Source of the DNA: Candidatus Zhuqueibacterota bacterium
Lineage (GTDB): Bacteria; Zhuqueibacterota; Zhuqueibacteria; Thermofontimicrobiales; Thermofontimicrobiaceae
Reading direction: 5' to 3'
Assembly: GCA_049322915.1 (NCBI GenBank)
Contig: JBMOPW010000003.1
Span: 64,001 to 128,000, forward strand
DNA length: 64,000 nt
A program made the translations under genes and the position numbers. How positions within the stretch are numbered: position 1 is the stretch's first letter; each line of letters opens with the position of its first letter. The notes under the pieces are model-generated. The model saw only the letters and a program-made list of their open reading frames with translations, was not told the origin of the DNA and made no database searches. Shown here in pieces: positions 2,991 to 64,000 of the stretch.

Positions 2991-2999
2991 ACCGTTCTG

Positions 3000-37849: not shown

Positions 37850-40342
37850 TCACTTCATCAATACTATTTTTCGAGTCAGGACATCACCATTGCTTGCCGC
37901 ACGGATGAAATAGACTCCGCTCGTCAGAGATTCCCCCAATGCATCGCTGCCGTCCCAATCGATTTTAAAATTCCCGCTTTCAACGCGTTCATTCATTAAC
38001 GTCCGGATCAACTGACCGCGAGCATTGAAAATCGTAATCCGCATGACGCCCGGTTGCTGAACGGAGAAGGACACGGTGGTGCTGTTGTTGAATGGGTTGG
38101 GTACGTTCTGCGACAATGAAAAGCCAGCGCCCTGATTGTCGATGGCCTCCCGGCTGACGCCAGACTCAATTTTAATATATTTGATGGCGACGTCATCCAG
38201 ATACCAGCCGGCCAGGGGCGCTGCATTGTCTCCGTCGCTCCCGAAACGAAACCGCAGATGGAGCCGGGTCGCTGCGCACGACGCCAGGTCGAAAACCTCC
38301 GACTGCCAGGGATGGCTGCCGGAAAAAATCCCAGTGCCCGGGGCAAAGGGTCCGGATTCAATCCCATCGGGAATGGCAAATGGGTAACCATCCACAGGGG
38401 AAAGCTGCATCCACGCCGAGGTGGTATCCGGCCGCCACTCGACAATTCCCCCGTCGTACGCAAAGGAAGGATCGTCGGCATCGGTTTCGGCCTCCATCCA
38501 GGAATAAAAAGTCAGTTCAATCCGCTTCGCTGGCGGCACATCGAAGGCAGGCGCATAAAGCGAGCCATCCGCTGAATCAGGATAGGTCCGGCTCAGGCAT
38601 GTCGCCCACACGTTCCCGCCCGAGTTAGCCTGGGCTGGCCCGACGCCCGGCTTTCCCCATTGCCACAACATATCGCCCGCTGTGAAATTGCCGTTACCGG
38701 TTTCAAAGTCCGCCCTGAAAAGAAATTCGGCCGGCGACATGTTGTAATGAAGCGACCGATTCTCAAAAACAGCGATGGAATCGGTTTCGCTCATGAATTC
38801 ATTGCTGGTAATTTTCACGGCATAGTGACCGGCCGGGACCAGGAGTTGAAAGGAGCCATCCATTTGCGTCGCCGCAGAAAAACGGCCAGGCCCGGTGAAT
38901 TGAAGATTCGCTGCCACCGGCGCTCCGCTGATGCTGTGCGCCACTGTGCCGGTAATATTGTAGCTATCGGTTGGCGCCAATCGAACATCCAGCCGGGTTG
39001 TCTTCCCGGCTGAAACGATGACGGAATCGACCTGCCGCGCATGATACCCGTCCGCCAGGAAACGCAGCGAATACACGCCGGGGAGCAGCATGCGGTAATA
39101 GTCGCCCATATCAGGATCGCTGTACACAGCGTGTTCGTTGCCGACAACTTCAATCGTGGCAGCAATCGGCAGTCCGGTGAGCGAATCCGAAATGACGCCC
39201 CGCACGCCCCAGTGAACCGCTTCGAGGTAGGCGAGCATGGATTCCCGGTTGTCCTCCCAGAACGTCGGCAGCAGCGACGCCGCCGGCCAGGAAACATCGC
39301 TGAGTTCAATCGTCACCTCGTTGGCGCCGCAATAGATATAGTTCCAATCCTGCATGCCGCCGTAAATGACATACCAGTCCGCGCCATTGGTGATGCCGTA
39401 TTGAAAATCCAGGCTGCTCCACATGGGCGCATTGTGAATCGAGTAAGCCTTCGCCAATGTCACGAACAATTCATCGTCCGGGCATACGGTGTAAACCGGC
39501 AGACCGGTCGAGTTGGAATCGTACGGATAATTCACCACCACCACACCTGTGTGAAAATTGGCCGAGAGCACGAACGAATGGTTGAATCCGAAATTCATCA
39601 CCGCCTGGGTCTCCAATTGGCGGCCGACAATGGAGTTGTTCGGGTCGTCGATACGGTCCGGGAAATTCCGGTTCAAGTCAATGCCATTTTGATTCCAGCG
39701 CCGGCGCGCGATGTAGCCATCCGGGTTCATAAGCGGCATGATCCAGATTTCCGTCTCATCCACCAAAAAGGTGATTCGGGAATCCTGGCCATAATTCTCT
39801 AACAGGTGTCGCATGAAGTACAGGCACAATTCCATGCCCACCGGTTCATCGCCGTGCATGGAAGAAATATATTTGAATTCCGGCTCAACTTCTTCAGCGG
39901 CGACATGATCGCTTATTTTCACAAACCAGAGATCGCGGCCAAGCACCGATTTCCCAATGCTCTGAAGCTGACACAGATTCGGGTACTGCTGCGCCAGCAG
40001 TTGCAGCTCCGCTGTCAATTCATCAAACGTGTGATAGGCATCCATGGGATTCGCGCTGTTCTTCGTGGCCAACCAGAGGCTGTCCGCGTATTGCCGTGAA
40101 ACGTCCGGCTCAATGGCGATTTCGAAACCGGCGGCAATCAGCCGATGCTGTTCGGCTGAAGTCACATAGGCGTACACATTCCGGCGCACATCGACTTTCA
40201 CAATATCAAATTTCTGCTGAGCCAGCCAGGAGATGTCCTGAGATGACACGTTCGCTATTTTCATCAGAACGGCGTCCGATTGGGCGAACATCGGAACTGC
40301 GAGAGCAAGAATGATTGCAACGATGGAAATGAAAGATTTCAT
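37850..40342 (-). CDS. Secreted M14 (N/E-type) zinc carboxypeptidase with carboxypeptidase-regulatory repeats and a FlgD/T9SS-like C-terminal domain
   Basis: HGDE, LNRNFP, ANFHTG and GGMQDWNY motifs. C-terminal QNVPNPFN...WDG...SGVYFIR. Confidence 0.9.
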   Translation of the reverse strand: MKSFISIVAIILALAVPMFAQSDAVLMKIANVSSQDISWLAQQKFDIVKVDVRRNVYAYVTSAEQHRLIAAGFEIAIEPDVSRQYADSLWLATKNSANPMDAYHTFDELTAELQLLAQQYPNLCQLQSIGKSVLGRDLWFVKISDHVAAEEVEPEFKYISSMHGDEPVGMELCLYFMRHLLENYGQDSRITFLVDETEIWIMPLMNPDGYIARRRWNQNGIDLNRNFPDRIDDPNNSIVGRQLETQAVMNFGFNHSFVLSANFHTGVVVVNYPYDSNSTGLPVYTVCPDDELFVTLAKAYSIHNAPMWSSLDFQYGITNGADWYVIYGGMQDWNYIYCGANEVTIELSDVSWPAASLLPTFWEDNRESMLAYLEAVHWGVRGVISDSLTGLPIAATIEVVGNEHAVYSDPDMGDYYRMLLPGVYSLRFLADGYHARQVDSVIVSAGKTTRLDVRLAPTDSYNITGTVAHSISGAPVAANLQFTGPGRFSAATQMDGSFQLLVPAGHYAVKITSNEFMSETDSIAVFENRSLHYNMSPAEFLFRADFETGNGNFTAGDMLWQWGKPGVGPAQANSGGNVWATCLSRTYPDSADGSLYAPAFDVPPAKRIELTFYSWMEAETDADDPSFAYDGGIVEWRPDTTSAWMQLSPVDGYPFAIPDGIESGPFAPGTGIFSGSHPWQSEVFDLASCAATRLHLRFRFGSDGDNAAPLAGWYLDDVAIKYIKIESGVSREAIDNQGAGFSLSQNVPNPFNNSTTVSFSVQQPGVMRITIFNARGQLIRTLMNERVESGNFKIDWDGSDALGESLTSGVYFIRAASNGDVLTRKIVLMK

Positions 40343-48166: not shown

Positions 48167-48231
48167 ACATGCTCCTTTCCCGATTCATCCACCCCGACAC
48201 AGTTTTCAAATTCATTCATCCATTCAAAACA

Positions 48232-48969
48232 TCATCGCTCATCATTCACAGAAGAGACGGCTTCGGGAATGCTTTGCACCGACTGGCGCTCAAATTTAAA
48301 ATCGATGATTTCCAACAGTTTCCCCATGTGCAAGGTCGAAAACATACCGGCCAGGCCCTGGTTCAGATTGGCAACTCTCAATGTTCCCTCTATTTTTTTC
48401 AATCGCTTATTCAGCAGGACAAGCAGCCCAATGCCCGTGCTATCCATCGTGGCCACCCGCCCGAGATCGATAATGAAATCATATCGCCCATTTTCGATCA
48501 ATCGATCGATCACTTTTTCCACCCTGGCCGTATTGGACGAATCCAGGCGGTGCTGACATTCAATGACGACTTCCCCGGTTTTCAGCTCGATGACTTTCGT
48601 ATCTGATCCAATGTGTCGTTCCATCGCCTTTTCCAGATCATCGTCGCCAAATGGCATAATGAGCACGTCGTCAAAACCCACGGTTTCCACAAGCGATGTG
48701 AAACACTGGAGATTCCAATGGCAGATGGCAATTTTGGGGACCTCGTGAAGTTGCCGCATGGATTTAATAGTATCCGCCAGTTTGATGCTTTCCGAATTCA
48801 CAAGGAAAAATTCAACGATAATCAGATCGGGCAATGTATGGCGCAGCTTCTTTTCAATTTCGATTCGATCCTTCATGTGAAAAACTGTGTAGCTTTTGCC
48901 CTTGAGATACGTGTTCAGATCTTCCGTGACTCCGGGGAGCGTATTGCAAACAAAAATATTTTCACCCAT
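48232..48969 (-). CDS. Pseudo-receiver plus STAS (anti-anti-sigma) fusion protein
   Basis: Receiver-like N-terminus (PDLIIVEF, Glu in place of the phospho-Asp). C-terminal STAS IDLGRVATMDSTGIGLL. Confidence 0.78.
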   Translation of the reverse strand: MGENIFVCNTLPGVTEDLNTYLKGKSYTVFHMKDRIEIEKKLRHTLPDLIIVEFFLVNSESIKLADTIKSMRQLHEVPKIAICHWNLQCFTSLVETVGFDDVLIMPFGDDDLEKAMERHIGSDTKVIELKTGEVVIECQHRLDSSNTARVEKVIDRLIENGRYDFIIDLGRVATMDSTGIGLLVLLNKRLKKIEGTLRVANLNQGLAGMFSTLHMGKLLEIIDFKFERQSVQSIPEAVSSVNDER

Positions 48970-49095
48970 CTTTCTTCCCGTGCGCTTATCTGTCCTATTC
49001 AATTGTAGATAATGTGATTTGTCCGCTGCAATAGACCACCGGCCAGTCAGTCCTTTTTTGACTCCGGCTTCTTCCTGAATAGTGAAGGGACTCGC

Positions 49096-49503
49096 TTATT
49101 CTGCAAATTCGAATCGGTTGTCCGCTTTACCATCATCCTTCTTCGTCGCCGGGGAACGCCCCGGACGCGCCGTCAGCATTTTGAGCAACTGCCAATCGTC
49201 GTCGTTCAACTGCATCCTGTCCGCGATGAGAACCGCCTCGTATCCAGCATTTCTCAACTGGCTCACCCGCAACAGCGTTTGCCGAAGCGAGACGCGCAGT
49301 TCTTCCCAGGTATGTTCGGGATGCCCATTTCCATCATTCAGGCTCAGACTGTTTGCAAGCAAATTGGGGATGGCCACCTTTTCCACTTTTGTCACGCGCC
49401 GAAATTTCCGCTTTATCGTGTAGCTCTTTTTCGCCAGCGGTTCAAAATCCAGACGTTGCTCAATGCTGGTTCTATCGTTGAGTCTTCTCATCCACACCAT
49501 CAA
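49096..49503 (-). CDS. Hypothetical protein, first gene of the sigma28-like unit
   Basis: 135 aa ORF, co-directional with the cluster. Start is uncertain. Confidence 0.55.
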   Translation of the reverse strand: MMVWMRRLNDRTSIEQRLDFEPLAKKSYTIKRKFRRVTKVEKVAIPNLLANSLSLNDGNGHPEHTWEELRVSLRQTLLRVSQLRNAGYEAVLIADRMQLNDDDWQLLKMLTARPGRSPATKKDDGKADNRFEFAE

Positions 49504-49538
49504 CCATTTTATTTCTATTCGCTTAGACTTTTAATATC

Positions 49539-49566
49539 ATATCGACAGGCCGCATGAAATTCCTTA
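49539..49566 (-). promoter_or_regulatory. Putative sigma28 (FliA/SigD) promoter
   Basis: Minus strand reads TAAG-N16-GTCGATAT; the consensus is TAAA-N15/16-GCCGATA(A/T). Confidence 0.55.
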
Positions 49567-49785
49567 ACAGATAATCCAATCTTTTCGCTTTGAATCTGAG
49601 CGAAAACTGGGACGGACGCCATAAATCCGGCAACGGAGCTGTATCGGAAATCAGCCACGCGATGGATGTTCTCTGCCAGGTAGGCTCTGTTTTGCCACCT
49701 GCGACTTTGGCTGGCGCCGGGAGCGCCGCCACTAAAAACGAAAAAATTCAGCCTGGCCGGAGCGGTTTGATGTTCATTTCAAACC

Positions 49786-49819
49786 AAAAAAAAAGGTGAT
49801 TGACTAATCAACCACCTTC
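49786..49819 (-). terminator. Rho-independent terminator of the hdr cluster
   Basis: Plus strand reads AAGGTGATTGA-ctaa-TCAACCACCTT, preceded by an A-run (a U-tail on the minus strand). Confidence 0.8.
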
Positions 49820-49846
49820 TGTTGCTGAGCAAGAATTGAAATTTGA

Positions 49847-52336
49847 CTACATCCGCGCCGGCGCAGCAGATTTTTCCGGAGTTGCCTGCTCTTTGGCTGC
49901 GCGCTCCTTCTTCGGCCTGGCTTCTTCGGCCAACACTTTCATGGTATATTCCACTTCATCCTGGGTGACTTTCTGGCGCATTTCTTCAACGGCTTTCATC
50001 ACTTTGGCCCATTTCTGCCCTTCGGCCGCGCTGACCCACTCCAATTGCAGCCGCTCCGGCCGAATGCCCGCCTTTTCCAATTTATCCCACAGTTTCTCCA
50101 CGCGCTTTTGCGTGGCGCGGTTGGCGTCGATGTAATGGCAATCCGCAAAGTGACAGCCGGAGACCAGCACAATGGGCGCGCCCAATTTGAACGCATGCAG
50201 CACAAATTTGTCTTTGACGCGCCCGCTGCACATGGTGCGGATGATGCGGGCGTTGGCAGGAAATTGCAGCCGCGACAACCCGGCCAGGTCAGCCCCGGCG
50301 TAGGAGCACCAGTTGCAGGCAAAGGTGACAATTTTGTCCATGTTGTTTTCCGACAGAATCGCTTCGATTTGCGCGTACATCTGAGCATCGGAGAAATGCC
50401 GCATGGTGATGGCGTCGAAGCGGCACTCGGCGCTGCACGTGCCGCAGCCCTTGCACGACGCTTCAATCACCCGCGCCGGCAGTTTCGATTTTTTATCGAA
50501 TACAATGGCGTTGAAGGGACACACATTGGCGCAGATTCCGCACATGGTGCAGGCTGCCTCATCCACCTGCGCTGTAATCGCTTCGATTTTAATTTTGCCG
50601 GCTGAGAGCAACACCCCGGCGCGCGCCGCTGCCGCACTGGCCTGGGTGACGCTGTCTTTCACGTCTTTGGGGAATTCGGCGCAGCCGGCAAAGAACACGC
50701 CGCCGGTGGGCGCATCCACCGGTTTCAACTTGGGATGCGATTCCATGAGGAACCCGTCCGCGGTGCTGGACAGGCTCAATAGCTTTTTCACCGTCTCGTT
50801 ATCTTTACGGGGAATGACGCCGACCGAAAGCACTACCATATCCAGTTCGTGCTCTTCCAGAGTCCGCGTCGTTGTATTTTCCACCGTGAGGTGGAGCTGT
50901 CTGGTCTTCGGATTTTCCTCGATCTCTCCCGGTATGCCGCGAATGTACATCACTCCGGCTTCTTTGCTGCGCATGTACAGGTCTTCGAACCCCTTGCCAA
51001 AGGCGCGAATATCCATGTAAAAAACCTTGACTTCGACATCCGGGTAATGATCCTTAAGGAGCAGGCTGTCCTTCACCGTGTTCATGCAGCAGATGTTGCT
51101 GCAATAGGGATTGCCCCGCTCCGGGTCCTGGGTTCGCGAGCCCACGCACTGGATGAAGCCGACTGTCTTCGGCGTCTGGTGATCCGTGGGACGAATGAAA
51201 TGTCCCTGGCTGGGTCCTTCGGAGCAGATGAGCCGTTCGAATTCCATGCTGGTGATGACATTCTCGAACCGCGTGTAGCCGTAATCATCCAGCCTGGTCG
51301 GATCGTACACATCCATCCCGGTGGCGACAATGACGGCTCCCACCGTCACATTCAGCATTTCGTCGCGCATGTCATAATCGATGCACTTTTTATCGCATGC
51401 GTCGTAGCATTTGCCGCAGGCAATGGGATTGTTGCCGAGGCAATTTTCCATATCCAGAATGTATGCGGAAGGCACTGCCTGTGGAAACGGCATGTAAATT
51501 GCCTTTCGCGATGACAGCCCCATCTGGAATTCGTTGGGCACAATAATGGGGCAGACTTTGAAACACTCGCCGCACGCCGTACATTGCTTTTCGTTAACGT
51601 ACCGTGCTTTTTTACGGATGGTCACCTGAAAATTACCAACGTAACCGGAGACGTTTTCGACCTCGCTGTAAGTGAGCAGTTTCACTCGTGGATGTCGACC
51701 GACATCCATCATTTTCGGACCTAAAATTCATATCGAGCAATCCATTGTTGGGTAGGTTTTATCAAGCTGGGCCATGAGTCCACCGATGGATGGCTGTTTC
51801 TCCACAAGGTACACTTGAACGCCGGTATCAGCCAGATCCAGCGCCGCCTCGATGCCGGCAATACCGCCGCCGATGACCAGCGCCTTGCGGTCCACCGGCA
51901 CTTCCATTTCATGCTGAACCGTTAAATGCCTGGCCCGCGCCACCGATACTTTCACCGTGTCCTTTGCCTTCCTCGTTGCAGCGTCTTTGTCGTACAGGTG
52001 GACCCAACTGCAATGCTCCCGGATATTGGCCATTTCGAACAGATAAGGATTCAGGCCTACTTCGGCCACGCAATTGCGGAACGTCGGCTCGTGCATCCGC
52101 GGCGTGCAGGAGGCCACAACAACGCGATTGAGCTTGTGTTCCACAATATTTCTTTTGATTTCCATCTGGCCGGGATCCGCGCAGGTATACCGATTGACGC
52201 ACGCAAAAGCGACATCCGGCAGCGTGGCCGCATAGTCACTCACTGCGTGGCAGTCGACCGAACCGGCGATGTTCAGCCCGCACTCGCAGACAAACACCCC
52301 GATCCTCAGTTCCGTATCATTCAATTTTTCTGCCAT
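49847..52336 (-). CDS. hdrA: Heterodisulfide reductase subunit A fused to a C-terminal MvhD domain; predicted selenoprotein (Sec203, TGA at 51728-51730)
   Basis: ORFs 51728-52336 and 49847-51712 are in one frame, joined as [21 protein letters not shown]. Contains CECG, GGGIAG, ferredoxin motifs, QCVGSR..CSNICC and MvhD CNWCSY..GCH..DCHY. Confidence 0.92.
51689..51708 (-). promoter_or_regulatory. Candidate bacterial SECIS element (hdrA-mvhD fusion)
   Basis: Perfect 8 bp stem TGGATGTC-GGTC-GACATCCA. The loop starts 27 nt after the UGA. Confidence 0.78.
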
Positions 52337-52560
52337 CTTGATTCCTCAATTCTGGTTTTTATGTTATTACCCAGCAACTTTTGCAAATTTGAGCAAAAGA
52401 ATTATATTTGAACCGGTCATATAGTTTTACTATGTGCGGCTATGCCGCGCTGGGAATAGGGGAAGGATTTACAGATTTTGTTCCAGTATTTTCTATTTAA
52501 AAAAATATAACACATTTTTGTCTACCACTTTTCTTTCTTTTATTTTTAACACAATTAAAA

Positions 52561-52600
52561 ATCCGTGAGAATCTGTGTTATCCGTGTCATCCGCGTTCTA
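52561..52600. repeat. Short-period ATCCGTG-type intergenic repeat
   Basis: atccgtg-aga-atctgtg-tt-atccgtg-tc-atccgcg, with a partial inverted partner at about 52463-52479. Confidence 0.55.
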
Positions 52601-52639
52601 TGTTTTTTAATGTTTACTTCGTTAGAATTTGATATAGAA

Positions 52640-53545
52640 TTATACCACCTCACTCCCTTCAACCGGCCCGATCTTCGCCATAATCGAATCGAATTTGATG
52701 CGGTGCAAGTGCAAGCCCACTTCTTCAGGTGAAAATCCCTGGGCCAATCCCAAAAGCTGGCAAAAATAAATCACCGGCAAATTGAACTCCCGGTTCATCT
52801 TTCGGGAAATCATAATCTGTCCCATATCGAACGAATTGAAACAGGTGGGACAAATCAATCCCATGCAATCAGCCTGAACCGATTCCATGGAAGCGAAAAT
52901 TTCGTATGTCATTTCCAGGGGCATGTCGGCGTCCATACAGCCCTTGCCGCAGCAGAGGAGCTTTTCACTATGCGTGAGCGGCGTTGCGCCCAGCGCTGCA
53001 ATGAGATTTTCCAGCAGGTTGGGATAGTCCGCGTCGTCGATGGCCATTATCTGGCTCGGCTTCAGCAAATGACAGCCGTAGTGAATGCCCACTTTCACCC
53101 CGGTCAGCGGCCGCTTCACCGACGCCCTGATCGGCTCGATGCCGAGATCATCGCGCATCATCACCACAATGTGCTTCACCTTACCGGTGCCCTTGTACTC
53201 GCGATTGACCCGCTTCAACCGGCGGTTCACTACCTCGCGGAGTCCCTCATCTTCGGCCAGCATGAACCGCGCCTCCTGCAACGTGGATGTGCAGCCGCTG
53301 CACATGGTAATCACATCCAGGCCGGCATCTTCGGCGATGCACAGATTTCTCGCGGCAATGGTGAGCCACTGGACTTTATCGCGCGCCTTGAAATAGATGG
53401 GATCCGGGCAGCAGGTGAACCCGTCCAGGTCGACCAGTTCCACGCCGATGGGTTCCATGGTTTTTCGCACCGACAGTTCCATTTGCGGGTATTTCGCCGG
53501 AATCATGCAGCCCCAGAATGGCGCCACACGCAGTTTTTTCGCCAT
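52640..53545 (-). CDS. hdrB: Heterodisulfide reductase subunit B
   Basis: Two CCG domains: FWGC, TCCPDP, CSGC, HYGCH, CCGKG and CPTC. Confidence 0.92.
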   Translation of the reverse strand: MAKKLRVAPFWGCMIPAKYPQMELSVRKTMEPIGVELVDLDGFTCCPDPIYFKARDKVQWLTIAARNLCIAEDAGLDVITMCSGCTSTLQEARFMLAEDEGLREVVNRRLKRVNREYKGTGKVKHIVVMMRDDLGIEPIRASVKRPLTGVKVGIHYGCHLLKPSQIMAIDDADYPNLLENLIAALGATPLTHSEKLLCCGKGCMDADMPLEMTYEIFASMESVQADCMGLICPTCFNSFDMGQIMISRKMNREFNLPVIYFCQLLGLAQGFSPEEVGLHLHRIKFDSIMAKIGPVEGSEVV

Positions 53546-53705
53546 AGTTACCTCGTAGTAACGGTATTATTTCAGGATAAGTTATATTTTATTAAAATCA
53601 CAAATTTCAAATAAATGCGCTGCAGGACGCATCTGCCTTCGGCATGATTTCAATTTCAAAATAGCAGGGTCCAAACTTGAATATCAACTGAATATTGAAA
53701 ATAAT

Positions 53706-53914
53706 GTATCTGCTCAGCCTCAAAGACTCAAAAACTCGAAGTTAAATTTATTAGTTTGATTCTATATTCAAGGCCTAACAAATTCGAAAATTAACTTTGC
53801 CTTCCTTCATGTTCTATTGAACTCCCTTCTCCCTGTGGGAGAAGGGCCGGGGATGAGGGAAAGAATTATTACATTATTTTTAATTCTATTGAAGTCAAGC
53901 TGAGTAATAGTTAC
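53706..53914. mobile_element. MITE with IS66-like ends
   Basis: Ends GTATCTGCTCAGC / GCTGAGTAATAGTTAC. The 8 bp flanks AAAATAAT and AAAATACT match at 7 of 8. Confidence 0.6.
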
Positions 53915-54037
53915 AAAATACTCTAAAACATTTCAGTGAATGAACATATTTGTTTGTAATTTGGTTCTTTATCTTTTGAAATTTATTTGATATTTGGATA
54001 TTGTCATTTTTATTTTTCTACACATATTGGATACAAT

Positions 54038-54505
54038 TTAGGGTTCGATGATTTTCTGCAACTCACTCACATCGATGTCCTTCAATTCCGGCAAGCCCAA
54101 ATCTTTCCTGCGGCGATTCACCGTGCTGGTAATCACCACGCTGCGCCCGGTTTTTATCAGCGCATCGGAAAATTTGTTGATGTCATCCGGCAGAACGCCA
54201 TCCTCGGCGCAGAGATTTTTCAGCGCGATGATCACTTCCACCGGCCGTACATCCTGGGGACACCGCTCATAACAACTGTAACAATTGGTGCATTTCCAGA
54301 TAATGGAATCCGGCCGAATCAAATCCTCTTCTTCGCCAAGCAGTGTTTTAAGCATAATATCCCGCGGATTGAAATCTTCCGAAAACCGCGCTGCCGGGCA
54401 CACAGCCACGCACGAACCGCACTGGTAGCAGTAATTGTGGTGCTTGCCCCCAACAATTTTATTCAACCGCTCCCGAAATTCAAAACTAAGTTTTTTCTGA
54501 GTCAT
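54038..54505 (-). CDS. hdrC: Heterodisulfide reductase subunit C
   Basis: CYQCGSCVAVCP and WKCTNCYSCYERCPQ. Adjacent to hdrB. Confidence 0.92.
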   Translation of the reverse strand: MTQKKLSFEFRERLNKIVGGKHHNYCYQCGSCVAVCPAARFSEDFNPRDIMLKTLLGEEEDLIRPDSIIWKCTNCYSCYERCPQDVRPVEVIIALKNLCAEDGVLPDDINKFSDALIKTGRSVVITSTVNRRRKDLGLPELKDIDVSELQKIIEP

Positions 54506-54612
54506 AGTAAGCCTTTGGTGATTGGTTTACTGGTTATTTGTGATTGGTCTGACGTGTACATTAACGACTCAATATATTTATCTAAAAGCTGGTAATATCT
54601 AATTGCCAAACG

Positions 54613-55887
54613 CTATCGCAACAACACCATTTTTTTCACATCCACGAATTCACCCGACTGCAAAATATAAACATACACCCCTGAAGCGACAAAGGAACCG
54701 TTCTCATCACAACCATCCCATCGTAAAGTATAATTTCCTGCCTGTTTCACTTCTCTTACAAGCGTACGTATTTTCTGCCCGAGCTGGTTATAAACCATTA
54801 GTGTGGTTTGCCCAGGTACAGGAAGTTGAAAACGGATTTCGGTTCCAGAATTAAATGGATTTGGAAAGTTTTGATGGAGAACAATAGTTTCATTCAATTG
54901 TGATTTCTTAACATTGTATTTCACCTTAGAGACTGTTGTGTCTAAGTATACACTTAATCCATTTATATTTTTGAACCAGATTGCTCCTTTTTTATCTACA
55001 TAGAAAGCTTGCGCGTCATTGCCCAAAACACCTTCTAAAGTTAGATGCTCCCACTGCCGACCATCAAACCTAGAAAATTTTTTTTCTGTAGAGCCATAAG
55101 AAGCCCAAATATAATAAAAGGAATCGATAATGACACTAACATAATTAGATAATAGCCCATCACTTACAGTATACACTTGTACGTTATTCCCATCATAAAT
55201 TCCTAAACCTCTTCCATTAGTACCGAACCAGAGACGATCATATTTATCAAAACTAAAGCTATATGCCGTCCACATCAAGTCTCCCCATAAATAGCTGTTA
55301 ATATCTGAAAGACCATTTGTATGTCCAATAAAAAGTTTACCTTTTCGGTCTACACCAAACTCTAAAATTGGATCATATATGGTTGTGCCAGGAACGTAGA
55401 AAGGATGCCATTGCAACCTGTCGAACCAATATGCCCAGTTAGCCATAGAACCGGCCCATATATAACCTGAGGAATCAACTCCTAAACTTTGAATCCAGGT
55501 ATCTTTTTCATTTCCAGAAGGATTGTAATAAGTAAATGTGGAATCGTCATACTTGACCACATATTCCTTAGTAGGGTTGCTCATTGCTACGCCAACAAAC
55601 CATTTATTATTTTCTTTATCTACAACTATTTGATTTTTGAAAAACATTGTACTATCCCAAACAGTTGAATCCACCAAAGTATGCCAGATACCGTTCGTAT
55701 CTAATTGGCACACAGCATTATCTGTCGCAAACCAGTAATTGCCGTATTTATCCTGTGTCATATCAAAAACCACACCTGGCAGTTCATCGGTGTAATACGT
55801 CCACACACCTTGCGCTATGCAAATAGATATTTTAAAAAATAGCGAAATGATTACTATCATGAGATATTTATTTATCCGTCTTTTCAT
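54613..55887 (-). CDS. Secreted beta-propeller (two-component regulator propeller repeats) protein with a FlgD/T9SS-like C-terminal domain
   Basis: Signal peptide, repeated D..G..WF motifs and C-terminal QNFPNPFN...WDG..ASGVY. Visibly AT-rich. Confidence 0.85.
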   Translation of the reverse strand: MKRRINKYLMIVIISLFFKISICIAQGVWTYYTDELPGVVFDMTQDKYGNYWFATDNAVCQLDTNGIWHTLVDSTVWDSTMFFKNQIVVDKENNKWFVGVAMSNPTKEYVVKYDDSTFTYYNPSGNEKDTWIQSLGVDSSGYIWAGSMANWAYWFDRLQWHPFYVPGTTIYDPILEFGVDRKGKLFIGHTNGLSDINSYLWGDLMWTAYSFSFDKYDRLWFGTNGRGLGIYDGNNVQVYTVSDGLLSNYVSVIIDSFYYIWASYGSTEKKFSRFDGRQWEHLTLEGVLGNDAQAFYVDKKGAIWFKNINGLSVYLDTTVSKVKYNVKKSQLNETIVLHQNFPNPFNSGTEIRFQLPVPGQTTLMVYNQLGQKIRTLVREVKQAGNYTLRWDGCDENGSFVASGVYVYILQSGEFVDVKKMVLLR

Positions 55888-55954
55888 CTTTGCACCTGAC
55901 ATGATAATTCTAAACTCTGCGCAGAGGAGTGTTTCCCAGGGGAAACCTTTATTA

Positions 55955-57100
55955 TTATTCAACCACCAACTGCGAAACCAACGTCACCAAATCTTTAATC
56001 TCCAGATTCACTTCTTTTTTCAACTGCTCATCCTGAAGCGCGCATTTGTAGTGGATTTCACATTTGGGGCAGGCGGTGATCATCATGTCCGCGCCGGCGC
56101 GTTTCGCTTCGCGAAACCGGTTCGCCTGAATGGTTTTGGCGACAGCGCCGCAGGTGAGCCAGTTGCCCACGCCGCAGCAGGTCGCTCTTTTCCCGCTCTT
56201 TTCCATTTCCACAAATTCGATATTCGGTATCGCGTCGATGACCGATCGCGGAGCTTCGTATACGCCCATGTGCCGACCCAACCGGCAGGGATCGTGGTAG
56301 GTGACCGGGATTTTCATCTCCTTAAATTTTATGGATTTATTTTTCACCTGCTCATCTAACATTTCCAAAATATGAACCACTTTAAAACCGAGTTTCCCGA
56401 AATAAAAGGGATATTCCTGGGAAAACGTCTGATACCCCTCCGGGCAGGAAAACACCACGGTTTTGGCGCCGGCCTCCTCGATCAGTTTGAGATTGTGTTC
56501 TGCCAACCGTTTGAAATTATCCAGGTCCCCGCTCCACAGCATATCGTGGCCGCAGCATCGCTCATCCGGCAGCACCACCGGGGCAACGCCCATTTTATTC
56601 AAAAGCTGAATCGCGCCTTGTGTTGAGCCAACCGATTCCACGTTCAACTCGGAAAAATAGATATCAAAATAGGGCGCGCAACCGACAAAATACAGCACGT
56701 CACCTTTCTTGGCGATTTTCAAATCTTTGGACAGCCAGTCCATGCGGTTCTGTTTCAGCTCTTTGGCGGTCATGATGCGCATGAGCGACTGGAACGCGCC
56801 GCCGTGACTGCACTCTGCTTTTTGGCCGGTGTTCATGGAAATGGACCGAACGTCCCGCATAAACGTGATGTAATCGATTTGGGAGGGACACCGCGTCTGG
56901 CACAGTCCGCAGGTTAAGCACTCCCAGAGCGATTTATCGTGGTACAATGTTTCCTGGTCTTTTAACACGCACTGCATGAGCATGGAACGCGGCGAGAAGC
57001 TATGGTTGATCTTGGCGACAGGGCAGTTTCCGGTGCATTTTCCGCAGTCGAGGCAGTGATAGGCCCTGGTTCGTCTGATTATTTCGCCGATAGTGTTCAT
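55955..57100 (-). CDS. HdrD-like Fe-S oxidoreductase (two 4Fe-4S motifs plus two CCG domains)
   Basis: Motifs CLDCGKCTGNCP, CLTCGLCQTRCP, ERCCG, YHDPCRLGR, CCG and TACPKC. Confidence 0.9.
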   Translation of the reverse strand: MNTIGEIIRRTRAYHCLDCGKCTGNCPVAKINHSFSPRSMLMQCVLKDQETLYHDKSLWECLTCGLCQTRCPSQIDYITFMRDVRSISMNTGQKAECSHGGAFQSLMRIMTAKELKQNRMDWLSKDLKIAKKGDVLYFVGCAPYFDIYFSELNVESVGSTQGAIQLLNKMGVAPVVLPDERCCGHDMLWSGDLDNFKRLAEHNLKLIEEAGAKTVVFSCPEGYQTFSQEYPFYFGKLGFKVVHILEMLDEQVKNKSIKFKEMKIPVTYHDPCRLGRHMGVYEAPRSVIDAIPNIEFVEMEKSGKRATCCGVGNWLTCGAVAKTIQANRFREAKRAGADMMITACPKCEIHYKCALQDEQLKKEVNLEIKDLVTLVSQLVVE

Positions 57101-57210
57101 AAATTAACTCCCTGAATGAGCGATGGTAGAGTTTGTATTTTAAAAGCGGTCAGCCTTCAGCAGTCAGCTTTCAGCTTTTTGATCGTTCTGGTCAATCTGA
57201 CTCCCAACGA

Positions 57211-57711
57211 TTAAGAAGTGGCTGCGGCCTCCGGTTCCAGCTTCACTTCAGAATCCGATTGGCCTCTCAACGGACTGGGACCGAGGTCCTTGACGTGCGA
57301 AATCATTTCGGTCACGATATTGGCGAACTTCTGGGATTCCGCCGCTGAAATTTGCTCCAGCCGCACGCGCTGTTTTTCGACACCAACGAGGTGCAGCATC
57401 TTTTCCACTTTTTCGAAATTCTCCGCCGCCCGGCGGGCGCCAAACATGTAATGGCAATCAGCAAAGTGTCACGTGGCCACTAAAACGCCATCCGCACCCA
57501 GCTCGAACGCTTTGATGATGAACGCCGGATTGATGCGTCCACCGCACATGACGCGGATGATTCGCACGTTTGGCGGATATTGAAACCGATTCACCCCGGC
57601 GCCGTCCGCGGCCGGGTAGCTGCACCAGTTGCAGCAGAACGCGACCAGTTTGGGGTCGTAATCGTCCTGCTGTTTCGTCGTCTTTTTCCGGGTCTTGGTT
57701 TTTCCTGTCAT
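57211..57711 (-). CDS. mvhD: MvhD/FlpD [2Fe-2S] subunit; predicted selenoprotein (Sec81, TGA at 57469-57471)
   Basis: In-frame [19 protein letters not shown], with CCNWCSY and RVMCGGR. The paralogous domain in this window has Cys at this position ([11 protein letters not shown]). Confidence 0.9.
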
Positions 57712-57801
57712 GAAAAGTCGCCTTCTTAAATGAGTCTCATTCGCAAGCCTTAAAAGGCTTAACGTATTTGATTTGATATTGTTATCCACGCCAAAAATGA
57801 C

Positions 57802-58035
57802 GTAGCTATTCATTGAAAAAGCTAAAAGTCAGACACCTTGAATAGCCCCGACTTTTAAGTCGGGGAACAGAAAGTCACCTTTGATTTTTGGGCGTTAGCT
57901 CCTTTTTAGCGTCGAATTATTCTGAGACTGTGCAATTCAGTTTCATTTTTAAAACCAAATTCAGCATTTCAGAATCGATCATTTTGACAATTTCTTTTTC
58001 TGTGCGCCTTTGAGACTCTGAGGCTGGATAGTTAC
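57802..58035. mobile_element. MITE with IS66-like ends carrying a REP-like palindrome
   Basis: Ends GTAGCTATTCA / TGGATAGTTAC match at 9 of 11. Internal palindrome CCCCGACTTTTAAGTCGGGG (57846-57865). No clear target duplication. Confidence 0.45.
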
Positions 58036-58186
58036 CAAAATTTCAATCGCCAAAACTGCTTGAAAATTGGCTTTTGAAATTTTAAATTTATCTGTTATTT
58101 GCTTTTTTGAGTTTTGTTTTTTCCCGCCTGCAAGTCTCAAAGACTCGAAATTATAAAACAACATTCGAGTCTTCGCGGTGAAAAAG

Positions 58187-61100
58187 CTATTCATTAAAGA
58201 TCGCTTCCATCTGCGCTTCAATCTGGTCATTCGTGAAATGGCGAATATCAATCGCGCCGGTGGGACAGACTGCTGCGCAACTGCCGCAACCCTTGCACAG
58301 CGCTTCATTCACAAGCACGGCCATGCCGCCGTCAGGTGTCTCTTTCAGCGTCAGCGCATTGAATTCGCAGACCTGCACACAGCGGCCGCAGGCGCGACAG
58401 AACCGCGTATTGGCCGTTGACACAATGGGCTCCAGCGTAATCGTGTCCTCGGATAGCAGCGCCGACACTTTGGCCGCAACTGCCGAAGCCTGGGAAATCG
58501 AGTCCGCAATATCCTTGGGACCCTGGGCGCAGCCGCAGAGGAAAACCCCCTCCATGGAAGTCTCCACCGGTCCCAACTTGGGATGCCGCTCCATGAAGAA
58601 GCGGTCGGAACTGCGATGAATTTTCAGTAAATTCACGAGGGTATCGCTCTCTTTTTCATCCGGCACCATGCCCAGAGATAAAATGACCGCATCCACCGGG
58701 TACTCCACAATGTCGCTGTTCTGCTTGTTCGGCAATGTCAGTGACGACACTTTTTTCTTGCCATTGAATTGCGGCGGGTTATTTTTTTCATACGGAATGA
58801 ACAGCACGCCGGCGCCGCGCGCCTCGCGATACATTTCTTCTGCGCCGCGGCTGTACACGCGCACATCGCGATGAAATACCATCACCTGAATACCCATCTT
58901 TCGCAGGGCAAGGGACTGTTTGATCGCAGCCTGACAGCAATAGCGGGAGCACCCCGGATTGCCCTTTGGCCCGCGCGAGCCCACGCACTGAATAAATGCC
59001 ACTGTTTTCGGTTTCTTCCCGTCGACTTCCAGGTATTCGCCGCGGGAGATGAGGCTTTCGAAATACTCATTGGTGAACACATTGGAAAAAATGCCGTAAC
59101 CAAATTCGCCCCGTTCCGGCATGTAAAGATTGGAACCAATGGCCACGACAATGGCGCCGACTTTGATCGGCTCTGGCGTCATACCAGGGTCATCGTGCGT
59201 CGCCAGGTGCACTTCAAAATTACCCACAAAACCGTGCACCTGCTTTACCTCCGTGGAGGTGTGAACCATGACGCCCAGCCTGTTCAACTCTTTGATTTTA
59301 TCGGCTATTAAATCCTCGCCCGAATTGAAACCGGGGTACAACGTGGAAAGGCATCGCACGCGTCCGCCCAGCTCTTTCTTTTTTTCGATGAGACTGACAT
59401 GAAATCCTTTTCCGGCCAGGTCGATGGCCGCCTGAATTCCTGCCACACCACCGCCGATGATCAGCGTATCATGATTGACCCGCAATTTACGTATTTCCAG
59501 CGGCGTGAGCAGACGCGCTTTGGCCACGCCCATGCGCACCAGATCTTTGGCTTTCTGCGTGGCTTCCCGGGGATTGTGTTGATGCACCCAGGAGCACTGG
59601 TCGCGGATGTTCACCATTTCGAACAGGTAGGGATTCAGGCCCACTTTGGCAAGGCTCGCCTGAAAAATCGGTTCGTGTGTTTTGGGAGTACAGGCGGCCA
59701 CCAATACGCGGTTCAATCTGTGTTCAAATATTTTTTTCTGAATATCGGTCTGGGTGCTGGCGGCGCACGCGAACATTGTCTCTTCGCACAGAACAACGTT
59801 CTTCAATTTCCGGGCATACTCCGCCACAGCCGCCACATCCACCACACCGGAGATATTGATGCCGCAGTGACAGACGAACACGCCAATGCGCGGCTCCCCG
59901 CTGATTTTCACCTGCGGGATGACCTCCTCGACCCGCTGAATTTTGTGATCCAACACATGCCGGGCAGCCCGAACCGCTGCCCCGGAGGCGTCGGCAATGG
60001 AATCCGTGATGTCCTTGGGACTGATGGCGCATCCGGCGAGGTAGACGCCCTCGCGCGTTGCATCAAGTGGAATTCCGCAGGGATCGCTCTGTTTGAAAAA
60101 TCCGTCCCGGTCGATCTCTATCCCCAGCACATCGCCCAGTTGGCGGCTGCCCTCCGATGGCGTCAACGCCGATGAAAGCACGACCACGTCGAACGCCTGC
60201 TTTTCAATTTTACCGGTCTCTGTATTTTCAAAGACAACGACCGATTTGCCAGTCCCTGGATCGTCCACCACCTTGGACGGTTTGGCTTTCACAAAGTGCA
60301 GTTTTTTGATATTGGCAGCGCGCTCGAAAAACTCCTCGAAGCCCTTGCCAAACGCGCGAATATCGATGTAAAAAATGGTCAAGTCCGAATTCGGGTAATG
60401 CTCGTGAATGAGCATGGCGTCTTTCATGGCGTTCATGCAGCAGATGCGGCTGCAATATTGAATATCCCGCTTGATATTGCGCGAACCGACGCACTGGATG
60501 AATGCGATGGTTTTCGGTGTTTTACAGTCTGTGAATTTGACAAGTTCGCCGCGGGTGGGACCGCTGGCCGAGAGGATTCGCTCAAGTTCCATGCTAGTCA
60601 CCACGTTCTGAAATCGGGTGTAGCCCAATTCGCTCGCTTCGCGCGGGTCATAGTAGTCGACGCCGGTGCTGACGATGATGGAACCGACATTCTTCTCCAC
60701 AATCTGGTCGCGCTCATCATAATCGATGCAGTTTTTCTCGCACGCGTCCGCGCATTTGGAGCAGGCCAGGGGGAGAGTTCCGAGGCAATCTTTTTCATAA
60801 CGGATGTAGGCAGAAGGGACAGCCTGCGGGAAGGGGGTGAAAATCGCTTTGCGGGTGCCCAGTCCGATTTCGAATTCATTGGGCACCGTCACCGGGCAGA
60901 CTTTGGCGCACTCGCCGCAGCCGGTGCATTCATCGATATTGACGAACCGCGCTTTTTTCAAAATTCTGACGTTGAAATCACCGGCCTTACCTGTGACTTC
61001 GAGGACAACGCTGTTGGTGAATAGCTGAATATTGGGATGCCGACCGACATCCATCATTTTTGGACCGAGAATTCAGATGGCGCAGTCCATAGAGGGAAAG

Positions 61101-61240
61101 GTCTTATCGAGCTGCGCCATCTTCCCTCCGATGCTCGGTTCGCGCTCCACTAAATAAACCTGGATTTGCGAATTGGCCAAATCCAGCGCCGCCTGCATGC
61201 CGGCGATACCGCCGCCGATTACCAGTACGCCTTTGTTCAC
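58187..61240 (-). CDS. hdrA: Large tandem HdrA-like flavoprotein; predicted selenoprotein (Sec56, TGA at 61073-61075)
   Basis: GTG start after GGAGG. In-frame [22 protein letters not shown]. Two FAD-binding HdrA modules plus ferredoxin motifs. Confidence 0.9.
61035..61052 (-). promoter_or_regulatory. Candidate bacterial SECIS element (tandem hdrA)
   Basis: 7 bp stem GGATGTC-GGTC-GGCATCC with one G-U pair. Loop is 27 nt after the UGA, the same as in the other hdrA. Confidence 0.75.
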
Positions 61241-61504
61241 GGATTTCCTCCACAATGTGTCTGCGGATCGTTTAAATATTGCTTTTCAATTTTGGTTGCA
61301 TCGTTGCTGGAAATAGAATCACTTTGCTGTCAGACGAACGGACTACCTGGCCGATCATCGACGAATCGAGCGCGCTGCTTGTCATTTCGATCATCCAAAT
61401 CAAGGGCATGAATCGAAGAAAGCCGGTTCCCGCATTCGCCAACCCATGCGGTGATCAGGCCAATTACATCTCGACTCGCCGGCTCAGCAGCGTCCGTGCT
61501 TTTT

Positions 61505-62059
61505 CTAATTTTTTACCTGAAACTGCTCCATGCCGAAGTCATAACCCTTATCGAACGCCTTCAGATTGAGCTCTTCAGTGCCTTTGGGCACCGATAATTC
61601 CACGGTCTTGCGGACCGAATCCTTGTCAACAACCTTACATACAGCCGTAAAGAATCCCAGCATCACGATATTCAGGACAATCTTTCGACCGATCTCCTCG
61701 GCCAGTCGAGTCGCTGGCACTTTGTACACCGTGATTTTGTCCCGAACCTGAACGTCCTTGACCAGGTCTTCATCAACCAGCAGGATGCCGTCATTCTTCA
61801 ATTCAGGCTCAAATTTGGTGTACGCTTCCTGTGACATGGAAATTAAAATATCAGGTCTGGTCAGATAGGGATAGAGAATTTTTTCATCCGAAACAATGAC
61901 CTGCGCGCTGCATGCGCTGCCGCGCGCTTCCGGCCCGAAACTCTGGTTCAGCGTGGCATGTTTACCAGCCTGAATTGCCGCCGCCTTGCCGATGAGATAG
62001 CCGCACAAAATGACGCCCTGTCCACCAAATCCGGTGACGCGTATTTCAGTTTTTGCCAT
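61505..62059 (-). CDS. korC: 2-oxoacid:ferredoxin oxidoreductase gamma subunit
   Basis: Motifs GFGGQG, FGPEARG and NIVMLG. GGAGGA RBS. Confidence 0.9.
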   Translation of the reverse strand: MAKTEIRVTGFGGQGVILCGYLIGKAAAIQAGKHATLNQSFGPEARGSACSAQVIVSDEKILYPYLTRPDILISMSQEAYTKFEPELKNDGILLVDEDLVKDVQVRDKITVYKVPATRLAEEIGRKIVLNIVMLGFFTAVCKVVDKDSVRKTVELSVPKGTEELNLKAFDKGYDFGMEQFQVKN

Positions 62060-62090
62060 TATTTTTATTCCTCCTCGGAGAGAGTTTTTC

Positions 62091-62258
62091 GCCTCGAAGG
62101 CGCCAGGACTCGAAGGAAAACATTTTGTATTGAAAAAAAATTGTTCGGCGTTTTTGCAAAATTTCACTGGTAGTGCTATTCGATTTTCGCCGCTGGAGTT
62201 TCAATAATTTTTTATTGCCATGCCTGTTTTTCTTTTCGAGTCTTAAAGTCTTCGTGGC
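62091..62258. repeat. Intergenic imperfect inverted-repeat element (GACTCGAA family)
   Basis: GCCTCGAAGGCGCCAGGACTCGAAGGAAAA ... TTTTCTTTTCGAGTCTTAAAGTCTTCGTGGC. Related motifs at about 14200-14511, 53717-53740 and 58005-58180. Confidence 0.6.
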
Positions 62259-62278
62259 AATCATCTATCAAACTAAAA

Positions 62279-63169
62279 TCAAGCTGCTTCTTCTTTTGCT
62301 TGTTTGACGGCGCCATAAGGCACGAACTTGTCGCCCAGCTTTTGCGATAGCCAGCCATTCCAGTTATCGATGAATGTGGGTTTTTCCTTGTCAACGAATT
62401 TGCCCACGATAATTTTTTCCTGAAAGGCGATGTCCAGTTCATCGAGACTGGCGCCATGCTTGATCTCGCTGTTATCGTGATAGAATTTCATCAGATCCAG
62501 ACCGGTGCCCAGTCGATTGCGTCGCGCGTACAACGTCGAGCAAGGTGCGATCACTTCGACGAACGAAAAACCGCGTTTGTTCAAAGCCTCGGTCATGGAA
62601 CGGGTCAGGCGGCGAATGTGGAGCGACGTCCATCGGGCGACATACGTTGCGCCGCACGACGCAGCAAGCATCGGCAAATTGAACGGCATATCACTGTTGC
62701 CGTAGGGCGACGTGGAACTGTTCGCGCGAAGCGGCGTTGTTGGAGCGCATTGTCCGCCGGTCATGGCGTAGATGAAATTATTCACGCAGATCACGGTGAG
62801 GTCCATGTTCCTTCGCGCCGCATGGATGAGGTGATTCCCGCCAATGGAAATTAAATCGCCATCGCCGCTGAACACGATCACTTTCAGCTCCGGGTTGGCC
62901 AACTTCAACCCGGTGGCAAAAGGAATGGCGCGTCCGTGAGTTGTGTGAAACGAATCCAGCTTGATGTAACCAGCTACCCGTCCGGTGCAGCCAATCCCGG
63001 AGACGATGGCGATTTTATCCAGCGGATAATCGAATTTTTCCAATGCAGCGATGAAACAAGAGACTGCCGTGCCAATGCCGCATGTCGGACACCAGATATG
63101 AGGGATGCGATCCATCCGCAGCAATTTCTCCATGGGATGTTCCGGCAGATTATCTTTTATCGTACTCAT
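62279..63169 (-). CDS. korB: 2-oxoacid:ferredoxin oxidoreductase beta subunit
   Basis: Motifs WCPTCG, SGIGC, HGRA, TPP-binding GDGD..IGGNH and NN..YAMTGGQ. Confidence 0.93.
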   Translation of the reverse strand: MSTIKDNLPEHPMEKLLRMDRIPHIWCPTCGIGTAVSCFIAALEKFDYPLDKIAIVSGIGCTGRVAGYIKLDSFHTTHGRAIPFATGLKLANPELKVIVFSGDGDLISIGGNHLIHAARRNMDLTVICVNNFIYAMTGGQCAPTTPLRANSSTSPYGNSDMPFNLPMLAASCGATYVARWTSLHIRRLTRSMTEALNKRGFSFVEVIAPCSTLYARRNRLGTGLDLMKFYHDNSEIKHGASLDELDIAFQEKIIVGKFVDKEKPTFIDNWNGWLSQKLGDKFVPYGAVKQAKEEAA

Positions 63170-64000
63170 TTGACTGCCTCCTGTATTACTTTGAAAATTT
63201 TATCCGGATCATGGACCCAGCCGCCGGCATGGGGCACATGAAATACCTTTGCTTTGCCACAAACCACTCGCTCCAATTCCAGCACCACCTGGCCCAGATT
63301 GATTTCCGGCATCACGAACGCTTTGGCCGTTTTTGCCAGTTCTCTCACGCGTCGTTCCGGGAATGGCCACACGGTGATCATTTTTACAAATCCCACTTTT
63401 ATGCCTTTTTCCCGCGCCTTAAAAACCGCCGGCATGGCCACGCGGGACGTGATTCCGTAGGCCATCACAATGACGTCGGCATCTTCGGTCTGATCTTCCT
63501 CGATTTCAATAATGTCGTCCGCGTTCTTCTTTATTTTATCGCACAGTCGGTTGACGAGTTTGTCCTGGGTTTCCGCGGTCATGACCGGGTAGCCGCGTTC
63601 GTCATGGGTCAAGCCGGTGGAGTGAATGCGATAGCCTTCCCCAACGACGATCATTTCCGGCACCAAATCCTTGCCGGCCTTGTAGGGCAAATATTTATCC
63701 GGCGGCAATTTGGTCAAGCGCCGGGGAGTAATTTCGATGTCATCCGCCGCAGGGATAACGACTTTCTCGGTCATGTGGCCCACGCATTCATCCAGCATCA
63801 GCAGCACAGGCACGCGATATTTTTCAGCAAGATTAAAGCATTTAATGGTGTAATCGAAACTTTCCTGCGGCGACGCCGGGCTCACCGCGATGATTTCATA
63901 GTCTCCGTGAGAGCCCCAGCGCGCCTGCATCATATCCTGCTGGCCAACCATGGTGGGCAGTCCGGTCGACGGGCCGCCGCGTTGCACGTTCACGACGACG
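63166..64000 (-). CDS. korA: 2-oxoacid:ferredoxin oxidoreductase alpha subunit (5' end outside the window)
   Basis: Motifs NVQRGGPSTGLPT, QARWGSHGD, TGLTHDERG, WPFP and EINLGQ. Confidence 0.93.
   Translation of the reverse strand, partial: VVVNVQRGGPSTGLPTMVGQQDMMQARWGSHGDYEIIAVSPASPQESFDYTIKCFNLAEKYRVPVLLMLDECVGHMTEKVVIPAADDIEITPRRLTKLPPDKYLPYKAGKDLVPEMIVVGEGYRIHSTGLTHDERGYPVMTAETQDKLVNRLCDKIKKNADDIIEIEEDQTEDADVIVMAYGITSRVAMPAVFKAREKGIKVGFVKMITVWPFPERRVRELAKTAKAFVMPEINLGQVVLELERVVCGKAKVFHVPHAGGWVHDPDKIFKVIQEAVK

Follow-up and report, generated by a model that had tools for sequence, protein, structure and literature searches.

Three TGA-interrupted genes on the minus strand

The stretch of DNA analysed here (the window, 64,000 nucleotides of contig JBMOPW010000003.1 from a Candidatus Zhuqueibacterota bacterium) carries a cluster of genes for heterodisulfide reductase (Hdr)-type proteins. 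Three of these genes, coding for an HdrA-MvhD fusion, a separate MvhD and a fused double HdrA, are each interrupted by one in-frame TGA without a frameshift. They were recognized in a listing of open reading frames (ORFs) in which TGA was read as selenocysteine (Sec). The genes and the interrupting codons are given below, with positions counted from the first letter of the window.

49847..52336, minus strand: hdrA-mvhD fusion gene, 829 amino acids (aa), proposed Sec203; HdrA of canonical layout, with MvhD as the C-terminal domain; ATG start behind GAGGA, stop TAG
51728..51730, minus strand: proposed Sec-UGA codon of the HdrA-MvhD fusion; context DCSI-U-ILGPKM; aligned to Cys197 of the solved HdrA
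57211..57711, minus strand: mvhD gene, 166 aa, proposed Sec81; match to PF02662 (1.5e-50); start ATG 57711
57469..57471, minus strand: proposed Sec-UGA codon of MvhD; context VAT-U-HFADCHY; aligned with Cys67 in the solved structure of MvhD (5odc_D)
58187..61240, minus strand: fused double hdrA gene, 1017 aa, proposed Sec56 with partner Cys53; GTG start behind GGAGGA, stop TAG
61073..61075, minus strand: proposed Sec-UGA codon of the double HdrA; context DCAI-U-ILGPKM

Ribosome-binding sites fit lengths of 1017 aa for the double hdrA, 166 aa for mvhD and 829 aa for the fusion. The mvhD frame is open as far as an ATG at 57813, which would give 200 aa, and the start at ATG 57711 is favoured because of the homologues and the ribosome-binding site. 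A first-pass annotation of this DNA had described three split genes, each broken by a single in-frame TGA with no frameshift, and had given the same three lengths; all three genes are present on the minus strand as described. That annotation had placed the DCSI motif correctly at 51728 and had swapped the other two motifs, as 57469 belongs to MvhD and 61073 to the second HdrA. It had also noted a Cys at the MvhD Sec column in the fused MvhD domain, and this Cys is seen in the translation of the 829-aa protein. The stops of all three genes are TAG or TAA; the neighbouring genes for the alpha and beta subunits of a 2-oxoacid:ferredoxin oxidoreductase (OFOR) stop at TGA. Further same-frame segments joined by one TGA were sought in the whole window and gave no convincing candidate, the others being adjacent genes or antisense frames. 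One such candidate at 48169-49008 on the plus strand was rejected, as it lacks a Pfam match and is antisense to a gene with a STAS domain.

Proposed selenocysteine decoding and conservation of the TGA codons

The three TGAs are read here as Sec codons and the three genes as intact, with a probability of about 95%. SelB carrying Sec-tRNA(Sec) with the anticodon UCA would bind an mRNA hairpin located just after each UGA, and the ribosome would then insert Sec instead of terminating. The products would be a full-length HdrA-MvhD of 829 aa, a fused double HdrA of 1017 aa and an MvhD of 166 aa.

The genome from which the window is taken (6.25 Mb, a draft assembly of 45 contigs, 96% complete) encodes the machinery for Sec decoding. 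It has one tRNA-Sec above the Rfam cut-off (63 bits against a cut-off of 47 bits), which ARAGORN also reports as tRNA-SeC with the anticodon tca. The selA gene (561.6 bits) is directly followed by selB (364.6 bits) on contig C2, and two copies of selD above the cut-off are present in the genome. One selD copy (locus L019, C2:57472-58398), which shares its contig with selA-selB at a distance of about 30 kb, has an in-frame TGA of its own and is therefore probably a Sec-containing SelD. A study of the KSB1 phylum has reported selA, selB and selD in most clades, and a term search of its available text returned no mention of Hdr (PMC9012183).

Conservation of the TGA was examined in 41 genomes, namely the genome of the window and 40 relatives, using a 191-aa HdrA query that spans the Sec site. 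The query matched 64 times in 24 of the 41 genomes; a TGA lies within 41 of these matches and is missing from the other 23. It is present in each of the 38 that score best, with 56-91% protein identity across it. A motif search accepting either Cys or Sec showed Sec at the HdrA column in 27 of the 30 loci retrieved, two of these 27 being the window's own. The remaining three consist of two distant paralogues with Cys (L056 and L057) and one locus that ends before the site. MvhD matches were obtained in 24 of the 41 genomes, and ten close orthologues with the VAT[C/U]H motif carry TGA (seven loci) or TGT (three loci). The three Cys-form loci (L024, L026, and L029) come from genomes whose HdrA keeps the TGA. 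The occurrence of Cys-form MvhD alongside Sec-HdrA therefore points to local Sec-to-Cys or Cys-to-Sec switches and not to loss of the trait, and the mvhD genes of these three loci have the appearance of a recent exchange between Sec and Cys that left a relic of the selenocysteine insertion sequence (SECIS).

A second hdr locus was found in the same genome on contig C36 (L141, position 5393), with an HdrA that has a TGA at the same column. This third Sec-HdrA of the genome carries the hairpin GGAUGUC-GGUC-GGCAUCC, the same as that described below for the window. An MvhD-like match with a TGA inside, a candidate for a further Sec-MvhD, lies nearby at C36:110033-110479.

Comparison was extended to 76 loci from many phyla among named records, in a scan that leaves out the window's own records. 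At the MvhD column, 88 of the 92 motif matches have Cys and four have Sec (L065, L111, L115, and L129); at the HdrA column, Cys was found in 57 of 62 motif matches. A metagenome-assembled genome (MAG) labelled Cytophagia (L065) has Sec in both HdrA genes and in MvhD. Two WOR-3 MAGs (L066 and L067) have Sec in HdrA only, and the MvhD of the L067 lineage has Cys. Sec in MvhD was also found in two MAGs of Thermodesulfobacteriota/Deltaproteobacteria (L111 and L115) and in a Dehalococcoidia MAG (L129). The closest named MvhD record belongs to an uncultured Cytophagia-labelled MAG, followed by WOR-3. The three TGAs of the window are beyond chance because they stand on columns that are Cys in homologues and because many other genomes have a TGA at the corresponding position.

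Bacterial SECIS elements have been modelled as hairpins with a loop of 3-9 nt, a stem of 4-16 bp, a G in the first two loop positions, a UGA-loop spacing of 16-37 nt and a minimum free energy no higher than -7.5 kcal/mol (PMC13188914). The following hairpins were found downstream of the three UGAs.

51689..51708, minus strand: SECIS hairpin of hdrA-mvhD; 8-bp stem, GGUC loop, UGA-loop spacing 27 nt, -11.0 kcal/mol
61035..61052, minus strand: SECIS hairpin of the double hdrA; 7-bp stem, GGUC loop, UGA-loop spacing 27 nt, -8.8 kcal/mol
57423..57436, minus strand: candidate SECIS hairpin of mvhD; 5-bp G+C stem, GGGC loop, UGA-loop spacing 37 nt, -8.3 kcal/mol

All three fall within the published constraints, the mvhD candidate only at the limit of spacing and with competing folds. 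The sequence GGAUGUC-GGUC-GRCAUCC follows both HdrA UGAs, and CCGCC-GGGC-GGCGG follows the MvhD UGA. In 30 distinct Sec-HdrA sequences the codons that form the hairpin are fixed, with GAT for Asp in 30 of 30, GTC for Val in 29 of 29, GGT for Gly in 30 of 30 and CAT for His in 30 of 30. The Arg codon is only CGA (19) or CGG (11), either of which pairs with U. Elsewhere in the same alignment Asp, Gly and Val use two to four synonymous codons, with top shares of 0.40-0.73. In one locus (L042) both sides of a stem pair are altered, from GUC/GAC to GCC/GGC. Seven hairpin codons of MvhD are identical in all seven Sec forms, and the loop G is changed in two of the three Cys forms.

Several observations count against Sec insertion or weaken the case made by the hairpins. 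The 30 Sec-HdrA sequences were chosen by a pattern requiring the TGA and the downstream peptide, and only their codon choice is informative because the pattern fixes both. With 37 nt, the mvhD hairpin reaches the largest spacing allowed; it has alternatives of similar energy, and the Cys-form locus L029 retains an identical mvhD hairpin. When the 63 nt after each UGA were compared with shuffles, z-scores of -1.88, -0.22 and -0.51 were obtained, with no clear excess of folding. Because of these weak z-scores, the argument for SECIS elements is drawn from conservation and from agreement with the model rather than from folding energy. An Rfam scan of 49000-62000 with E up to 10 gave no SECIS family and five chance-level matches. 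Among the sequencing runs listed for the region there is no RNA run, and Sec insertion itself is what we infer.

The lack of an RNA run also counts in favour of a rival reading, itself very improbable, namely that the genes are pseudogenes or genuinely split. The TGA would then terminate translation, and the downstream parts would be untranslated or made from internal starts such as the Met-Met pair six codons past the HdrA TGA. Under the standard code, downstream ORFs of 621 aa and 956 aa do start at ATGs shortly past the TGA. Against such a split, the break falls inside the FAD (flavin adenine dinucleotide) domain and exactly on the conserved Cys column, and the same TGA is found in 25 loci of other genomes with the protein sequence conserved on both sides. 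The hairpin past the TGA is also frozen at synonymous sites, and the genome holds the complete Sec machinery.

Errors of sequencing or assembly, by which TGC or TGT would have been read as TGA, are less probable still. A single base change would give Cys, and the assembly is a draft in 45 contigs; however, three independent errors would be needed, all of them on Cys columns. The same TGA is also found in many separately assembled genomes and in the named records of other lineages (L065-L067). Contigs from sequencing run X1, which is possibly the source of the assembly and so not independent, show 0 differences to the region. Where contigs from runs X3 and X7 cover the sites, none of the differences listed falls on the triplets; the runs other than X1 represent diverged relatives. 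The recurrence of the TGA in other genomes thus excludes, for practical purposes, both sequencing error and pseudogenes. TGA is reassigned in some uncultured lineages, but a genome-wide code change with TGA as Trp or Gly (table 4- or 25-like) has hardly any chance of applying here, as TGA ends 15 of the window's 41 stop-to-stop frames with 250 codons or more, including those of the neighbouring OFOR alpha and beta genes, as homologues have Cys and not Trp or Gly at the position, and as a tRNA-Sec with the anticodon TCA is present with selA, selB and selD.

Reading the TGAs as Sec codons is in line with the first-pass annotation, which had proposed intact proteins and a Sec-decoding host, with Cys at the same columns in HdrA and MvhD homologues. 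Machinery, conservation and hairpins support the proposal, and the columns are Cys in most named records and in the solved structures. The annotation had suggested a search for selA, selB, selD and tRNA-Sec, all of which the genome contains; an alignment for Cys/TGA alternation, which was found among homologues at exactly the columns of the three genes; and a SECIS prediction, for which each TGA has a downstream hairpin fitting the bacterial model, that of mvhD at the spacing limit. Sequencing error, which it had named among the possible refutations, is contradicted by the return of the TGAs in independent genomes.

Protein architecture and gene neighbourhood

Residues 9-661 of the 829-aa protein align to residues 3-650 of the solved HdrA 5odc_A (E 2e-239), with Sec203 on Cys197, and residues 667-782 match the MvhD 5odc_D. 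The double HdrA matches 5odc_A in three permuted stretches. Its residues 23-379 correspond to HdrA 159-510 and form a first thioredoxin reductase (TrxR)-like unit with Cys53-x-x-Sec56 and an inserted ferredoxin, without the N-terminal domain. Residues 454-625 correspond to HdrA 3-174 and hold the N-terminal Fe-S domain and the beginning of a second unit. The second unit is divergent, TrxR-like and without CxxC, and residues 848-1021 correspond to the C-terminal ferredoxin part. In the crystal structure, Cys197 of one HdrA is a ligand of the N-terminal [4Fe-4S] cluster of its partner HdrA, and in tandem or fused HdrAs the presence of Cys197 and that of the N-terminal domain have been described as complementary (PMC9012536). 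The 1017-aa protein conforms to this complementarity.

In both HdrAs, Sec would replace the second Cys of DCxxC, a motif of the FAD domain that resembles thioredoxin reductase, at the position of Cys197. A parallel exists in HdrA of Methanococcus maripaludis, in which Sec197 and a Cys hold density between cluster A3 and the FAD (PMC13518236). Its authors read this density as a possible selenylsulfide relay and call the role unresolved; Sec197 appears to form a Cys-Sec bridge between the N-terminal cluster and the FAD that bifurcates (PMC13518236). For MvhD, the alignment with residues 3-139 of 5odc_D covers residues 51-187 of the 200-aa frame and includes the conserved set of Cys; Sec81 corresponds to Cys67. 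Sec would here take the place of a conserved Cys of this small [2Fe-2S] adaptor.

Other genes of the cluster and its upstream region are as follows.

52640..53545, minus strand: hdrB-like gene, two CCG domains, 301 aa (PF02754, 1.1e-25)
54038..54505, minus strand: hdrC-like gene, 4Fe-4S dicluster, 155 aa, without Sec (Pfam)
55955..57100, minus strand: fused HdrC/HdrB-like gene of the HdrD or BamD kind, 381 aa, with one ferredoxin and two CCG domains
62167..61505, minus strand: OFOR gamma, upstream of the double hdrA
63169..62279, minus strand: OFOR beta, upstream of the double hdrA
from 63166 to beyond the window end, minus strand: OFOR alpha (upstream region 61505..64000)

In the direction of transcription the order is OFOR alpha, beta and gamma, the double hdrA, a 230-nt repeat, mvhD, the HdrD-like gene, an inserted gene, hdrC, hdrB and hdrA-mvhD, with hdrC and hdrB directly upstream of the 829-aa hdrA. 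The same hdr order, minus the inserted gene, is found in the Cytophagia-labelled L065 and in WOR-3 L067, with OFOR upstream in both. A TGA in hdrC of L065 was considered as a Sec codon and rejected, being a real stop codon. In L067 the OFOR gamma gene stops 4 nt ahead of the double HdrA, and this orthologue (487-4884, 1465 aa) has an inserted GltD-like NAD(P)H/FAD module (Fer4_20 and Pyr_redox_2) with the Sec codon kept. Searches of the cluster and its flanks, the part of the genome covered, gave no [NiFe] hydrogenase (MvhA, MvhG) and no formate dehydrogenase. Together with HdrB, HdrC and the HdrD-like protein, the three proteins most likely assemble into one or two Hdr-type complexes that use ferredoxin and carry out flavin-based electron bifurcation, with partners and substrate predicted from sequence.

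The inserted gene at 54613-55962 on the minus strand codes for a beta-propeller protein of 449 aa that matches Reg_prop, FlgD_ig and CHU_C, the last being a tail of the type IX secretion kind. It follows the HdrD-like gene with an overlap of 8 nt and precedes hdrC; it is absent from this place in L065, in which these two hdr genes are adjacent. Type IX secretion sorting domains (Por_Secre_tail, CHU_C) also occur in several neighbour genes, at 37850-40342 (minus strand) and L064 1747-5152 (minus strand), and these domains point to a lineage of the Fibrobacteres-Chlorobi-Bacteroidetes (FCB) type rather than to a deltaproteobacterium. The repeat at 57814-58043, about 230 nt long, has 46 matches in the contigs of the genome including its own site, the others having 74-93% identity, and run X1 shows a strong depth spike at it. 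Long spacers separate hdrC from hdrB (492 nt, 53546-54037) and hdrB from hdrA (303 nt, 52337-52639); the corresponding spacers of L065 are 10 and 29 nt. About 75-190 nt of the hdrC-hdrB spacer has three further copies in the genome.

Comparison with known systems and significance

Sec forms of both families have been reported earlier, as the first-pass annotation had stated and as several studies bear out (PMC1794560, PMC2702500, PMC13188914, and PMC13518236). A survey of 2006 counted Sec-HdrA and Sec-FrhD/MvhD among the most numerous bacterial selenoprotein families, with 16 and 19 genes, and described fused hdrA-hdrA genes, operons with several selenoproteins and Sec-to-Cys conversions with remnant SECIS elements (PMC1794560). 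Syntrophobacter fumaroxidans has seven HdrA and eight FrhD with Sec (PMC2702500, PMC1794560). Desulfobacterium autotrophicum HRM2 has Sec in hdrA1, hdrA2, hdrL1, hdrL3 and mvhD1, 2, 3 and 5 (PMC2702500). More recently, a review of 2026 has tabulated both families among the prokaryotic selenoprotein families (PMC13188914). Novelty is therefore limited. The window resembles the systems of Deltaproteobacteria and Clostridia in sharing both selenoprotein families, in the co-location of hdrA and mvhD, and in having a fused hdrA-hdrA, Sec and Cys paralogues in one genome and SECIS elements inside the coding region. Changes from Sec to Cys with a remnant SECIS, described for those systems, are also suggested by the mvhD genes of three relatives. 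It differs from them in host lineage and in a cluster without the frhA/frhG hydrogenase genes or a glpC selenoprotein gene, and with OFOR upstream instead.

The 829-aa protein can also be compared with HdrA of methanogens. Its Sec203 is equivalent to residue 197 of HdrA from M. maripaludis (Sec197) and Methanothermococcus thermolithotrophicus (Cys197, PDB 5ODC), and the full set of domains is present. The Cys-x-x-Sec pair stands beside the FAD domain as in M. maripaludis (PMC13518236). As in the HdrABC-MvhAGD complex of methanogens, HdrB and HdrC partners are encoded together with the HdrA. In contrast to the methanogen genes, the SECIS here is of the bacterial type and inside the ORF, whereas the archaeal element is in the 3' untranslated region; in addition, one protein has MvhD fused to it, and no hydrogenase or formate dehydrogenase is adjacent.

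The double HdrA has a likeness in class II benzoyl-CoA reductase of Geobacter metallireducens. BamE of this enzyme has been described as an HdrA dimer fused into one chain with permuted domains, in which Cys59 and Cys62 form a disulfide in one state, and BamF as an MvhD-like protein bearing Sec (bioRxiv 10.64898/2026.04.10.717634). Going by this published description, and not by an alignment with BamE, the double HdrA is similar in having two permuted HdrA-like units per chain, a redox pair near the N terminus (Cys53-Sec56) and a second unit without the pair. As with BamE, BamF and BamD, a Sec-bearing adaptor of the MvhD type and an HdrD-like partner are encoded alongside. Differences from the description were also noted. 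The pair is Cys-Sec here and Cys-Cys in BamE, and Sec is residue 19 in BamF, a protein more than 100 aa longer than MvhD, whereas here it occupies the Cys67-equivalent of a short MvhD. BamB (tungsten), BamC and BamGHI were not found among the neighbours, the part of the genome searched extending from window position 23014 to 17 kb past the window end. Because of this, the reading of the cluster as a class II benzoyl-CoA reductase was rejected, and the double HdrA is regarded as BamE-like in layout and is not filed under that enzyme.

A tentative and rather unlikely proposal is that the OFOR-linked cluster encodes an undescribed ferredoxin-linked bifurcating machine consisting of the BamE-like double HdrA, Sec-MvhD, the HdrD-like protein, HdrC, HdrB and HdrA-MvhD. 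If this were true, the three Sec residues would act as switch points, placed where electrons pass from Fe-S clusters to the bifurcating flavin. The cluster would then offer a system from outside the methanogens and the benzoyl-CoA reductases for studying the proposed selenylsulfide gate.

Overall, the window adds new examples of Sec-HdrA and Sec-MvhD to families that have been catalogued since 2006-2009, and the biological gain is modest. Less ordinary features are the BamE-like permuted double HdrA and the occurrence of the same gene order with upstream OFOR in the Cytophagia-labelled and WOR-3 MAGs. The Sec of the double HdrA stands at the residue for which recent cryo-electron microscopy has led to the proposal of a redox gate, one that would separate the N-terminal cluster from the bifurcating FAD, and the protein could help to test this gate if the complex were purified. 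The strongly conserved HdrA hairpin GGAUGUC-GGUC-GRCAUCC could serve as a search key for the family. For annotation, three intact genes would come out of a standard gene caller split or truncated, and the energy metabolism of the organism would be misread. The cluster also adds Sec-HdrA and Sec-MvhD from poorly studied uncultured lineages.

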